Assembly (NCBI RefSeq): GCF_000284115.1
Contig: NC_017080.1
Location: 2,370,001 to 2,402,000, forward strand
Direction of reading: 5' to 3'
Length of the DNA stretch: 32,000 nucleotides
Origin: Phycisphaera mikurensis NBRC 102666
Lineage (GTDB): Bacteria; Planctomycetota; Phycisphaerae; Phycisphaerales; Phycisphaeraceae
Shown: positions 14,607 through 25,919 of the stretch, in pieces
Layout: each line of letters starts with the position of its first letter
How positions within the stretch are numbered: the first letter of the stretch is position 1
Position numbers and translations under genes: made by a program
Notes under the pieces: model-generated
Databases searched by the model: none
What the model was told of the DNA's origin: nothing
Seen by the model: the letters and a program-made list of their open reading frames with translations, nothing else

Positions 14607-16343
14607 ATGGCCAAGCACCGGATGGAAGATCTCAAAGGCCGCCGCCTCGGGCGGGTGCTCACGAAGATGGGCGTGGTGACCCGGGACCAGGTGCAGGAGG
14701 CGCTGGGCCTGCAGGAGAACCGGCAGGCGACGCTCGGCCAGCTGCTCATCGAGCTCGGCTACGTCGAGCAGGAGCAGCTCAACGGGGCCCTGGGCTACCA
14801 GCAGGGCATGGACACCGTCGACTTGGGGGATTTCGACATCCCCCCGGCGGTCATCGCCATGATCCCCGCGGAGATGGCGAACACGTACCACGTGCTCCCC
14901 CTTCAGTACGACGAGAAGACCAAGAAGCTGACGATCGCGATGCGGTCGGCGGACAACTACCAGGCGCTCGACACGCTCCGCCTGATGATGGGCTTCAACG
15001 TCGAGGCCGTGCTGGCCCCGCCGGATCAGCTCGAGAAGCGGATCGGCCAGTACTACGGGGAAGACGAGGAGTCGCTCGCCTCGCTGGTCGCGGACCTCGC
15101 GGACGAGGATGGAGCGGACTTCGAGGTCGACGGATCCAAGAGCATCGACCTTGAGGCTCAGATCGAGATGGCGAACGACAACCGCGTCGTCCGCCTGCTG
15201 AACCTCGTTCTGCTGCAAGCGATCAAGGACAAGGCCTCGGACATCCACTTCGAGCCGTTCGACGACGAGTTCAAGATGCGGTACCGCATCGACGGCGTGC
15301 TGTACGAGATGATCCCGCCGCCGAAGCACCTCGCGATCCCGATCGTCTCCCGCATCAAGGTGATGGCGAACCTCGACATCGCCGAGCGTCGGCTGCCCCA
15401 GGACGGCCGCATCGAGCTCACCGTCGGTGAAGAGCCCGTCGACCTCCGCGTCGCGGTCCTGCCGACCATGTTCGGGGAGTCGGTGGTGCTGCGGATCCTC
15501 GACCGCTCGAACGTCTCGCTCGACCTGGCCAAGGTCGGCATGCGGGACGACGACCTCGACGCCTTCCGCCAGCTGATCCGCAAGCCCAACGGCATCGTCA
15601 TCGTCACCGGCCCCACCGGCTCGGGCAAGACGACCACGCTCTACTCCGCCCTCTCCGAACTCAACGGCATCAAGGAGAAGATCCTCACCGCCGAGGATCC
15701 GGTGGAGTACGACATCGACGGCCTCATCCAGGTCCAGGTGAACCCCGCCGTCGGGCTCACGTTCGCCGCCGCGCTGCGCAGCTTCCTCCGGCAGGACCCC
15801 GACATCGTGCTCATCGGCGAGACGCGCGACCTGGAGACGGCGCAGATCGCCGTGCAGGCGTCGCTCACGGGCCACCTCGTGTTCACCACGCTGCACACGA
15901 ACGACGCCCCTTCTTCGATCGCGCGTCTCCTGGACCTCGGCCTCGAGAACTTCCTGATCACCGCCACCATCGAGGGCATCCTCGCCCAGCGCCTGATCCG
16001 CCGGATCTGCCCGCGCTGCAAAGAGACGTACGAAGCGAGCGAGGACGAGCTGTACGCCCTGCAGCTCACGCTGGAGGACCTCGAAGGCCGCAAGCTCTAC
16101 CGCGGCCGCGGTTGCGAGTACTGCAACCACTCCGGCTACAAGGGCCGGATGGGTCTGTTCGAGATCATGATCCTCGACGACGACATGCGCGAGCTGATCA
16201 TGAAGCAGGCGTCCACCCAGCTGTTGCGCAACGAATCGCGCAAGCGCGGCATGCGGACGCTTCGGCAGTCCGGGCTCATGGCGCTTTACGACGGGATGAC
16301 GACCATCGAAGAGATCATCCGCGAAACCATGGTCGAAGACTGA
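14607..16343 (+). CDS. gspE: Type II secretion / type IV pilus assembly ATPase (GspE/PilB family) with N-terminal MshEN-type domain
   Basis: Walker A is GPTGSGKTTTLYS. Asp/His-box regions are present (LRQDPDIVLIGETRD, TGHLVFTTLHTND). The tetracysteine Zn motif CPRC...CEYC is typical of GspE/PilB rather than PilT. The N-terminus carries RLGRVLTKMGVVTRDQVQEALGLQ. Confidence 0.93.
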   Translation: MAKHRMEDLKGRRLGRVLTKMGVVTRDQVQEALGLQENRQATLGQLLIELGYVEQEQLNGALGYQQGMDTVDLGDFDIPPAVIAMIPAEMANTYHVLPLQYDEKTKKLTIAMRSADNYQALDTLRLMMGFNVEAVLAPPDQLEKRIGQYYGEDEESLASLVADLADEDGADFEVDGSKSIDLEAQIEMANDNRVVRLLNLVLLQAIKDKASDIHFEPFDDEFKMRYRIDGVLYEMIPPPKHLAIPIVSRIKVMANLDIAERRLPQDGRIELTVGEEPVDLRVAVLPTMFGESVVLRILDRSNVSLDLAKVGMRDDDLDAFRQLIRKPNGIVIVTGPTGSGKTTTLYSALSELNGIKEKILTAEDPVEYDIDGLIQVQVNPAVGLTFAAALRSFLRQDPDIVLIGETRDLETAQIAVQASLTGHLVFTTLHTNDAPSSIARLLDLGLENFLITATIEGILAQRLIRRICPRCKETYEASEDELYALQLTLEDLEGRKLYRGRGCEYCNHSGYKGRMGLFEIMILDDDMRELIMKQASTQLLRNESRKRGMRTLRQSGLMALYDGMTTIEEIIRETMVED

Positions 16344-16477
16344 ACCCACCTCCCGACGCCGCCACGCGGCGTTGCGACAACCGGGGTTCCTGCGAGATCG
16401 CGGGCCCCGCCTCCCCACCCGCCCTTTCGTTTCACGCGCTTCCCTCCCTGTGACCAGCCCACCCGGCTGGAGGTCCC

Positions 16478-25500: not shown

Positions 25501-25919
25501 CGACCAACCGCAGCGGCCGCATCGGCCTCTCCGCGACCGGCGAGCTCGCCGGCGACGCCGGCGTCTTCCTGAACGCCACGACGAACAACGCCCAGCTCGC
25601 GGACTTCAACGAGGCGGAGCTCGAACCGCTCGCCGGCGCGTGGCAGAACGCCGGCCTCGACCGGGGCGACCCCGCGGACGACGGCTACCTGCAGGACCGC
25701 GAGGAGCGGGACCGCCTGATGAACTACCTCAACCAGGTGGCCTCGACGCGGTCGGACATCTTCACGGCCTACGTGCTGGTGCGTGCCTACCCGGTGGCGG
25801 ACTTCTCGGCGGCCCCCGTCGACGAGTACCGCCTCCTGGCGGTCTTCGATCGCTCGACCGTCAGCGGCAGCAACCCGCTGGCCCGCCTGCTGGGCGTGGT
25901 AAAGCTCGACGACGACTGA
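22545..25919 (+). CDS. Giant GspK/PilX-like pseudopilus tip protein (1124 aa)
   Basis: The N-terminus RRGSALLLAVIIVVLMTMMGAAYLQVARTD is a GspK/PilX-type helix without Glu+5. It has a DADGDGIADSRW loop and two (N/I)LNTA helix-hairpin-helix-like motifs (RRNLNTADLGEIA, GRINLNTAPERVIASALPMPG), as in the GspK family. The opposite-strand 1248-aa ORF is a Gly/Arg/Val-rich shadow. Confidence 0.75.
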   Translation: MNPSFTPTASRTPRARTAGRRGSALLLAVIIVVLMTMMGAAYLQVARTDRRTSVDVDTRADVDNSSILRYIALELAGDVPVEVGATEPEPYDFPWTRSVAPASLPANDRWVVLDRFAPTTVPGPQPDFNSENNNQPARPPRADGNLNDAAGNLYAVSGPGDDTWLASTEPVFTGPNAGSWPHLTNLMGIYLDLQPGSLITDADGNIYPRQYLSTADDLNNSGDTGVDLGFMQTDLLAATGVNKGSRFADADGDGIADSRWTWAPLPSDGGLAYVMAVRIVDNSALVNLNAWTSPGLPNTDDGARWNWPGELSLELSTDALIARAGGGAGPHGFDGQVLTDGTARDMAGSNREQRYENWLTTTSTRGGNPGNLGDYETIGPYLEREATPAVAGGPENLGPITGDDESLPVRVEEVELRWKNGLDRSDDGIVPNAGTPLEDLRTALFRAGKPAAEADYADSGYTSLQAFFENEPRKQMTVVSGSSNAARRNLNTADLGEIASAFTGPLSYGGGTPRKPALFDAAGWEDYFASGDANADFNDAAEAFGNQFAALVEDFKDDDSHFTLVNNAYGMERVPVISEVWSQARYQATDVTADPGPPAEDLVDWTYQDHAVVIELVNPWPVPTVVTGVELVVGDESWGELDALLAKDVMDGHEIAVIRRPDALAGAAGPAQAPITAAGVDSDHAKTPAPDDFRISPAGPLEAFDITLVAEDNDGNEVPYQRLAVLSFPEEVLDERFATGGVTLGETRYRFARRVGTANGLNALAARSVDFSTEVPTPVPTGTVPPTNTVFVPAGNAPGDQFGTASKSVTSGATDVSGPLADLDNRVADVPDLDTAAAPGQEPWTIGDVGRLTRTGDILRLVFVGPRPTTGDVEPIAEAWIRSRLAAGSSSTALQLADRMIDLAGTEFVAAGADAPDSINFAASWLQRFTTDVPARTSLVPGRINLNTAPERVIASALPMPGAAERDAIAARVVAARENPSVLGATTNRSGRIGLSATGELAGDAGVFLNATTNNAQLADFNEAELEPLAGAWQNAGLDRGDPADDGYLQDREERDRLMNYLNQVASTRSDIFTAYVLVRAYPVADFSAAPVDEYRLLAVFDRSTVSGSNPLARLLGVVKLDDD

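Follow-up and report, generated by a model that had tools for sequence, protein, structure and literature searches.

Type IV filaments are among the best-studied nanomachines of bacteria and are usually dispensable for growth. The systems closest to the locus discussed here are the system for type II secretion (T2SS) of Escherichia coli and enterotoxigenic E. coli, whose Gsp operon follows the order E-F-G-H-I-J-K and whose GspK, GspI, and GspJ form a tip complex (PDB 3CI0), and the type IVa pilus (T4aP) with PilB-PilC-PilT and its FimU-PilV-PilW-PilX-PilY1 set. K-type minor pilins need their beta-sheet to be completed by a terminal strand, which is supplied in cis in GspK and in the ~600-aa protein CpaL of the tight adherence (Tad) system, the middle of which is partly dispensable, and in trans by PilY1/PilC and probably by MshQ (Ellison et al. 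2026, PNAS; PMC13533445). In planctomycetes, 41 or more prepilin-signal proteins are encoded per genome, pili have been proposed to serve as 'fishing rods' for polysaccharides, and the secretins encoded by Ca. Kuenenia are unlinked. Here we describe a seven-gene operon at positions 14607-25919 of a 32-kb stretch of the Phycisphaera mikurensis NBRC 102666 chromosome (contig NC_017080.1, positions 2,370,001 to 2,402,000; this whole stretch is hereafter called the window). The operon is best described as belonging with neither the T2SS nor the T4aP, and as a Planctomycetota-specific variant. We put the probability at about 0.6 that it encodes the core of a type IV filament machine peculiar in type to Planctomycetota and standing between these two systems.

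The operon encodes the core at the cytoplasmic membrane together with a full set of filament subunits, G and H-I-J-K, and combines traits of both systems. A cysteine-free GspG-like subunit, a platform protein closest to GspF, and a K protein predicted to have its own closing strands are T2SS-like, while a PilT gene linked to the cluster in relatives and an ATPase with a cyclic di-GMP (c-di-GMP) motif recall the T4aP and the mannose-sensitive hemagglutinin (MSHA) pilus. Because these traits occur together, and because GspC/L/M, PilM/N/O/P, a secretin, and a prepilin peptidase are all missing from the locus, we file it under neither name; its workings would resemble those of both. Its place in the wider type IV filament superfamily is indicated by the core arrangement of that superfamily, as ATPase and platform genes adjoin four prepilin genes. 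To date, the proteins have carried database names such as 'hypothetical', 'PulJ/GspJ family', and 'T2SS protein', and one paper lists an anonymous essential operon. We found no functional study of the cluster in the literature on the T2SS or pseudopilins of planctomycetes, on the Verru_Chthon cassette, or on secretins with crateriform structures.

All seven genes lie on the + strand, and re-measurement of the open reading frame (ORF) coordinates returned the co-directional arrangement, positions, overlaps, gaps, and sizes claimed by an earlier interpretation made from the letters alone (the sequence-only reading). The first gene, E (14607-16343, 578 aa), encodes a PilB/GspE-type ATPase that scores 469 bits with Pfam T2SSE and 62 bits with MshEN. 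It falls just short of both NCBIfam equivalogs, scoring 648.5 bits against PilB (TIGR02538, cut-off 675.65) and 623.8 bits against GspE (TIGR02533, cut-off 630.25). Residues 13-65 match the MshE-type c-di-GMP motif NF053729 with 45.3 bits, above its 38-bit cut-off, and the N-terminus is thus predicted to be an MshEN-type c-di-GMP-binding domain. E orthologues across Planctomycetota are 57-77% identical. The second gene, F (16478-17779, 433 aa), encodes a GspF/PilC-type platform protein with two Pfam T2SSF repeats (213 bits); against NCBIfam models it scores best with GspF (379 bits, cut-off 424), followed by PilC (373 bits, cut-off 700).

Four prepilin genes follow, of which the first two junctions (g3/g4 and g4/g5) are ATGA overlaps and the third (g5-g6) is a gap of 17 nt; a further 12 nt separate g6 from g7. 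They comprise g3 (17877-18530, 217 aa, or 235 aa from an alternative TTG start at 17823) in position G, g4 (18527-19543, 338 aa) as a minor subunit in position H, g5 (19540-20616, 358 aa) as a minor subunit in position I/PilV, and g6 (20634-22532, 632 aa) as an enlarged minor subunit in the GspJ position. Their products exceed the Pfam N_methyl cut-off of 21.2 bits (35.9, 26.3, 29.4, and 25.5 bits, respectively), and the processing motifs AG/FTLIELL, TG/FTLIELL, RA/FTLTEVL, and AA/FTLIELL can be read from the translations. In BLASTP comparisons, g3 aligns with E. coli K-12 GspG at both ends, residues 14-88 with 6-85 (E 4e-5) and residues 174-196 with 105-131 (E 2e-3), the latter including the 'SAGPDG..GT' motif. 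The two segments are colinear with ~70 additional residues between them, and g3 contains no cysteine. No Pfam T2SSG match was obtained for any operon pilin, and the TIGR01710 score was 30.5 bits against a cut-off of 88.85, below the level of a canonical T2SSG major pseudopilin. From these alignments, g3 is a candidate for the major filament subunit, of a GspG-like kind.

The minor subunits are recognizable in order from weak N-terminal matches: g4 to Verru_Chthon cassette protein D and GspH, g5 to PilV, Verru_Chthon cassette protein B, and GspI, and g6 to J and cassette C. The g4 orthologues in three close relatives (L036, L037, and L001) measure 332-345 aa and are 35-65% identical, and the counterpart of g5 in locus L017 matches PilV with E 1.3e-8 at model positions 2-75. 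NCBI names g6 a 'PulJ/GspJ family protein'. When the g6 family profile was aligned with E. coli GspJ using hhalign, the N-terminus alone aligned (89% probability, 40 columns). The AlphaFold2 model of g6 (predicted local distance difference test, pLDDT, 79.5; predicted template modeling score, pTM, 0.85) shows an N-terminal helix of 54 residues, to which four strands (85-208) with pLDDT >90 and then a second beta-rich part are joined; the four-strand part is as expected for a pilin domain. A Foldseek search of this model against the PDB gave no match. Shorter homologues of g6 (417-540 aa) align with its two ends only; thus, the extra mass of g6 is a lineage-specific insertion in the middle. A calcium-loop-type motif, DQDGDGNLD, is found at residue 122.

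The last gene, g7 (22545-25919, 1124 aa), encodes what appears to be a giant cap protein of the GspK family. Its signal consists of RRG followed by SALLLAVIIVVL, with G at -1 and without Glu at +5, and is of the GspK type (motif RG/SALLLAVII). By hhalign, the N-terminus of g7 aligns with E. coli GspK residues 3-26, and 'VRIVDNSALVNLN' at 277-289 corresponds to 'RDAQHCFNLN' of E. coli GspK (the NLN motif). There is no Pfam match to g7, and the NCBIfam GspK model reaches it only at E 0.033 (residues 927-978). However, three segments of g7, namely 161-290 (E 5e-13), 569-634 (E 3e-3), and 940-1106 (E 8e-10), align in colinear order with the family member P0073, and P0073 in turn matches NCBIfam GspK at positions 199-297 of its 307 (E 5.6e-12). 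P0068, P0073, and P0075 all score above the Pfam T2SSK cut-off (27-30 bits versus 24.2). Among 39 distant members of the family, 5 match T2SSK (E<=0.01) and 8 match HHH_3, the two models matching the same residues. Judged by these sequence links, g7 appears to belong to the GspK/PilX lineage.

The AlphaFold2 model of g7 (pLDDT 88.1, pTM 0.87) places a helix at 23-55 and strands at 258-281 in the N-terminal half, a large mixed insert in the middle with a helical region and a nine-strand sandwich at ~576-755, and in the C-terminal part a helical region at ~940-1065 (with a helix-hairpin-helix, HhH, at ~940-990) followed by three long strands at 1072-1122. As modeled, this is a K-type pilin topology in which the sheet is interrupted by an insert of ~800 residues; in GspK, the insert in the pilin sheet is ~100 residues. 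The best Foldseek matches are immunoglobulin (Ig)-like tail domains of lamins (E 4e-3, probability ~0.9), in agreement with the Pfam LTD matches, below threshold, that seven distant members of the family show at the corresponding relative position, while GspK (3ci0_K) appears at rank 42 with E 1.5. Profile hidden Markov models of the g7 and g6 families searched against PDB sequences returned chance matches or the N-terminal helix of geopilin or pilins only, and hhalign of the family profiles with single E. coli GspK and GspJ sequences likewise aligned the N-terminal helices alone. Invariant residues are distributed along the full length of both g6 and g7. They include D249, D253, and D257 of the g7 loop DADGDGIAD (249-257), which do not vary across 78 homologues. 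The pattern of this loop, DxDxDGxxD, is of the kind that forms a calcium site in integrins and PilY1. Separately, two K-family members (P0040, 1277 aa, and one other in alignment A4) carry CBM_5_12 chitin-binding modules within the insert (E 5e-13), a hint from sequence at polysaccharide binding in some lineages.

The proteins of the operon are far larger than their Gsp counterparts. In E. coli K-12, GspG/H/I/J/K measure 145/169/125/195/327 aa, and the H, I, J, and K proteins of the operon are 2 to 3.4 times larger. The I, J, and K proteins together total 2114 aa in the P. mikurensis operon versus 647 aa in E. coli, and the tip proteins, at three to four times the normal size, carry about 1500 extra residues. 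The insert in K measures ~800 residues, and J has ~350 additional ones. The sequence-only reading had proposed just such enlarged tip proteins, and had named the ATPase, the platform protein, the prepilins, and a GspG-like major pseudopilin on grounds that the Pfam matches and the alignments at both ends of GspG now bear out. Its canonical gsp order also holds, with the weak matches of g4-g6 in sequence and g7 in the GspK family, although H-I-J-K is common to the minor pilins of type IVa pili and is not specific to the T2SS. For g6 and g7, the AlphaFold secondary structure and motif homology support a pilin fold that extends past the N-terminal helix, with no corroborating match in the fold library.

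Missing machine parts were sought in the window and in ~8-10 kb beyond each of its ends, ~50 kb in all, and neither the window nor the flanks contain a secretin, GspC/L/M, PilM/N/O, or prepilin peptidase. When E. coli GspC, D, L, M, and O served as phmmer queries, neither the window nor any of 34 related loci yielded a match, and the large flanking ORFs of the related loci show no recurring secretin family. In most loci that extend far enough, a PilT gene (pilT_fam 406-455 bits, cut-off 319) lies directly upstream of E; this is the case in L036, L001, L006, L013, L014, L017, L021, and L027, and the PilT of L036 (L036:2-953) is 85% identical to that of L001. The syntenic site in P. mikurensis (12932-14606 of the window) holds instead a tRNA gene (12932-13004) and a Metallophos gene, the best NCBIfam match of which is LpxH (E 3e-12, below cut-off). 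PilT is present neither in the window nor in its flanks, and the best 120 matches to a relative's PilT, all at 74% identity or more, include nothing from P. mikurensis. These observations are suggestive of a loss of pilT at the operon locus in P. mikurensis.

The cluster is spread across the phylum. A scan of one genome per species gave 28 confirmed loci, and 28/28 belong to Planctomycetota, with representatives from Phycisphaerae, Sedimentisphaerales, Tepidisphaeraceae, Pirellulales, and Planctomycetales. Searching 1.84 billion cluster representatives with a g7 profile returned 5810 relatives at E<=1e-3, of which 2097 remain when the threshold is E<=1e-30, and the best 150 are mostly 1000-1400 aa long; K-family members outside the gene contexts we examined reach 1366 aa. 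In a close clade (L001, L005, L036, and L037), the gene layout and sizes of the window are kept and are followed by a HIT gene. Here the pilins and K measure 233/332/370/608/1109 aa in L036, 196/345/351/613/1161 aa in L037, and 243/341/342/687/1230 aa in L001. The closest relative, L036, has a K protein 56% identical to g7 and the same downstream synteny, with PilT upstream of E. The operon proteins of the relatives are 31-65% identical with lengths and gene order kept, and a pattern that recurs in the same order and sizes is therefore not due to chance. In other orders, E and F are accompanied by six or seven genes of prepilin type (~160-400 aa) and by a K protein ~840-1000 aa long, so that these Planctomycetia-type clusters differ from the window, with its four pilin genes and 1124-aa K, in having more and smaller pilins and a shorter K.

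As such, the absence of adjacent GspC, D, L, M, and O noted by the sequence-only reading extends to the flanks and to the related loci, and its conclusion that this is no textbook T2SS is borne out by the lack of a T2SSG domain, the lack of linked GspC/L/M and secretin genes, and the upstream PilT of most relatives. The LpxH-like and HIT genes that it placed at either end were also found there, and its suggestion to compare order and sizes across related genomes led to a cluster that is phylum-wide and not restricted to the P. mikurensis genome.

Two further observations concern the relatives. In L014, L017, L018, L026, L027, and L032, the second pilin after F (~300 aa) aligns with both ends of E. 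coli GspG (residues ~5-70 and 110-139) with ~190 residues inserted between them, and this second pilin of the Planctomycetia-type clusters looks like an expanded GspG in its sequence. Locus L002 (L002:10001-13261, accession CP087563.1, a 7.4-Mb genome) contains a lone K-family gene of 1086 aa with no E, F, or pilin genes near it, and the gene for a 19,792-aa protein ends ~5.5 kb upstream. Thus, orphan copies of the giant K exist.

A link to physiology comes from transposon sequencing of Planctopirus limnophila, in which the locus Plim_0410-Plim_0401 was listed as of unknown function (Rivas-Marin et al. 2023, Nat Commun 14:7224). This locus encodes T2SS-E, PilT, T2SS-E, T2SS-F, and six hypothetical genes restricted to Planctomycetes, and its genes were scored essential except for PilT, which was 'unclear' (Rivas-Marin et al. 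2023). Insertion indices were 0-0.006, compared with ~0.13 in neighboring genes (Rivas-Marin et al. 2023). The layout is the same pilT-E-F-pilins-K layout that we find in Planctomycetales and Pirellulales, and the likeness is one of layout alone; the P. limnophila locus also has an extra E-like ATPase and a PilT that are absent from the P. mikurensis window. No P. limnophila name occurs among the Planctomycetia K homologues that we looked up.

We envisage the following mechanism. The prepilins would be cleaved by a peptidase encoded elsewhere, after which g4-g7 (H-I-J-K) would form a priming complex that stays at the filament tip. K is assigned to the cap position because it is without Glu5, and it would close its own pilin beta-sheet with its C-terminal strands, as GspK and CpaL do. 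Beneath this complex, g3 would polymerize, powered by the ATPase and the platform protein, and the enlarged J and K would display a tip module of ~1100 extra residues, probably stabilized by calcium, with an Ig-like domain and in some lineages with carbohydrate-binding domains. Where an adjacent PilT is present, it may retract the filament. Owing to the loss of pilT at its locus, the P. mikurensis filament may be non-retractile or may use an unlinked ATPase. The most likely job of such a filament would be the binding of something extracellular, such as a polymer or a surface. We therefore prefer adhesion or capture as its function, with secretion as the main rival.

Several points weigh against our preferred assignment. 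The cysteine-free GspG-like subunit and the predicted closure of K in cis are no less compatible with a secretion piston than with an adhesive pilus, and so are the missing adjacent PilT of P. mikurensis and the essentiality in P. limnophila. Moreover, g7 is linked to GspK transitively, through its N-terminal segment, the NLN motif, and the C-terminal third only, and Plim_0401-0406 are likened to g3-g7 by layout and not by sequence. We consider it less probable that the operon encodes a divergent true T2SS, in which a short GspG-like periplasmic pseudopilus with a J-K cap pushes folded exoproteins through an unlinked secretin. Alternatively, such a variant might handle the numerous prepilin-signal proteins of planctomycetes, and the extra K and J domains would recognize substrates or gate the secretin rather than serve as adhesins. 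The alignment of g3 with GspG at both ends, SAGPDG motif included and without cysteine, the best score of F against GspF, and a predicted K terminal strand in cis as in the T2SS all favor this view, and unlinked secretins have a precedent in at least one planctomycete, Ca. Kuenenia, in a phylum with 41 or more prepilin-signal proteins per genome. PilT is lacking at the P. mikurensis locus, P. mikurensis is not represented in the best 120 matches (at least 74% identity) to a relative's PilT, and essentiality of E, F, and six downstream genes in the same-layout P. limnophila locus, with PilT 'unclear', would be unusual for an adhesive pilus. This essentiality, together with the loss of pilT in P. 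mikurensis, keeps the secretion reading alive. However, a true PilT gene lies directly upstream in most relatives, the closest one included, no Pfam T2SSG and no GspC/L/M occurs in the window or the 34 related loci, the MshE-type c-di-GMP motif of the ATPase is typical of surface pili, and the chitin-binding CBM5/12 modules of some K proteins would make more sense outside the cell.

A DNA-uptake (competence) pilus is a very improbable reading, in which a ComEA-like HhH region of K at the tip would bind DNA from outside the cell, to be carried into the periplasm when the filament retracts. The minor pilins of competence pili do bind DNA (PMC12040237), PilT is linked in relatives, the HHH_3 (ComEA-type) matches in 8/39 distant K-family members reach E 1.1e-10, and P0068 weakly matches the ComEA HhH model TIGR00426 (E 1e-5). 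Canonical GspK nevertheless has an HhH-like element, so that an HHH_3 match is expected from GspK ancestry alone; g7 itself is below significance for HHH_3, no comEC or comEA is found in the window and flanks, and the essentiality in P. limnophila does not fit. We give practically no credence to the view that the operon is a decaying or non-functional remnant whose large sizes stem from degenerate low-complexity extensions or miscalled ORFs at ~70% G+C. High-GC genomes do yield long spurious ORFs, many of them on the opposite strand here, the third-position G+C (GC3) of g6 (0.77) is below that of its neighbors, and pilT has been lost at the locus. Yet lengths and gene order are kept in relatives at 31-65% identity, invariant residues occur throughout g6 and g7, the AlphaFold models are confident and compact (pTM 0.85 and 0.87), and the GC3 of the operon reading frames, 0.77-0.97, is as expected of coding frames in the P. 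mikurensis genome. Spurious high-GC ORFs were accordingly rejected on the conserved lengths and invariant residues, and the long antisense ORFs are the usual high-GC artefact.

One conserved cluster that combines traits of a secretion system and a pilus is thereby retained throughout a phylum. P. limnophila is the only planctomycete to have undergone saturating transposon mutagenesis, and in it a same-layout operon is essential, with six genes called 'hypothetical, Planctomycetes-specific'. Should that operon prove orthologous, an anonymous essential operon would become a testable machine with pseudopilins and a giant GspK-type cap, which bears on both the polymer feeding of planctomycetes and the unusual construction of their envelope. 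A bolder version, which we regard as unlikely, sees a single phylum-wide, essential type IV filament machine that is neither T2SS nor T4aP and has envelope components of its own in place of GspC/L/M or PilM/N/O/P. In that version, the giant J-K tip would be the business end of the proposed 'fishing rod' pili and crateriform-structure fibers, pulling whole polysaccharides or other essential cargo into the enlarged periplasm.

The surroundings of the operon can be described briefly. The intergenic region 5' of E (14209-14606, + strand, a measured gap of 398 nt) presumably contains the operon promoter and is the syntenic position of pilT in relatives. It matched no Rfam family and showed no sigma-70 site that was convincing on the + strand, and scanning the operon for promoters, terminators, and Rfam families was likewise uninformative. 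Downstream, a HIT-family gene (25985-26407, + strand, 140 aa, Pfam HIT 83 bits) follows g7 at 65 nt in the same direction and may be co-transcribed with the operon. A HIT gene also follows K in L001, L005, L036, and L037 but not in the Planctomycetia-type loci; it is a conserved neighbor in the Phycisphaera-like clade, and nothing ties it to the machine itself. Within the operon, g6 (GC3 0.77) and g3 (GC3 0.86) are clearly below the neighboring genes (0.89-0.97) in third-position G+C, perhaps because these pilin genes evolve faster or are expressed differently.

The remaining genes of the window have housekeeping functions, and the chromosome beyond its ends carries nitrate-assimilation genes on one side and ABC-transporter genes and RlmN on the other. 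At its right end (28339-31989; also L033:585-10004), the window reaches a nitrate-assimilation cluster, and the same genes lie 3' of the operon in the closest relative. Among the genes of this cluster are those for NMT1-type binding proteins, ABC transporters, a molybdopterin oxidoreductase, a response regulator of the ANTAR type, and an alginate-export-like protein of the outer membrane. At 910-2116, a gap in which the public record calls no gene is occupied by a GC-rich tandem-repeat array. From 910 to 1417 it consists of a 46-bp unit repeated x11 with 96% matches and a hairpin (CACCGCC-TCC-GGCGGTG), and it continues to 2116 as higher-order units of 217 and 263 bp. In L001, a Planctomycetota metagenome-assembled genome, a WXG100 gene and a gene for a 1354-aa FtsK/SpoIIIE ATPase (L001:20427-23693) lie ~7 kb downstream of the cluster. 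Together, the two genes form a type VII-like secretion signature, unexpected in the phylum.

Set beside the known systems, the operon shares with the T2SS the E-F-G-H-I-J-K order, a cysteine-free major subunit that is GspG-like at both ends, and a K protein with G at -1, no Glu5, an NLN motif, and a predicted HhH region and terminal strands of its own. It differs from the T2SS in lacking a T2SSG match and linked GspC/D/L/M/O, in the 2-3.4-fold larger H-K proteins, in the PilT linked to the cluster in most relatives, and in the MshE-type c-di-GMP motif of its ATPase. With the T4aP it shares an extension ATPase, a platform protein, and, in relatives, a PilT above the pilT_fam cut-off, as well as minor pilins in the same H-I-J-K order and a protein of >1000 aa at the K/Y1 end of the minor-pilin block. 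Unlike the T4aP, it has no separate PilY1, the large mass lying within K, no disulfide-type major pilin, and no linked pilMNOPQ, and E is just below the PilB cut-off. The Verru_Chthon cassette A-D of Verrucomicrobia (TIGR02596, TIGR02598, and TIGR02599), from the same Planctomycetes-Verrucomicrobia-Chlamydiae (PVC) superphylum, is likewise a cassette of prepilin-signal proteins, and g4, g5, and g6 weakly match its D, B, and C proteins at the N-terminus in order, but g7 matches no further Verru_Chthon model. Membership in these families was rejected, as the scores (26.6 versus 70, 20.3 versus 51.4, and 16 versus 256.5 bits) fall well short of the cut-offs and cover the N-terminal helix only.

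The closest parallels to the tip itself are found elsewhere. As a concept, modular or oversized tip proteins are already established; what is notable here is a giant J-K tip that is phylum-wide, combined with hybrid traits and essentiality. In the modular type IV pilins, such as Streptococcus sanguinis PilB with its von Willebrand factor A module (PMC8179133), a pilin scaffold also displays a grafted module, but that module is appended and both the pilin class and the modules differ, whereas in the operon the module interrupts the pilin fold of K, and J has grown as well. CpaL/TadG resembles g7 in being a large K-like tip protein with an N-terminal pilin-like domain, a large middle, and a returning C-terminal strand, and AlphaFold gives g7 the same topology, so that as modeled g7 fits the in-cis class of K-type proteins. 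The two have no sequence relationship, CpaL being of the Tad lineage and g7 of the GspK/PilX lineage, and the g7 insert is larger and of other composition (an Ig-like lamin-tail domain and HhH). Beside PilY1 in trans and CpaL in cis, the operon would thus provide a third example of the attachment of a large tip module to a type IV filament.

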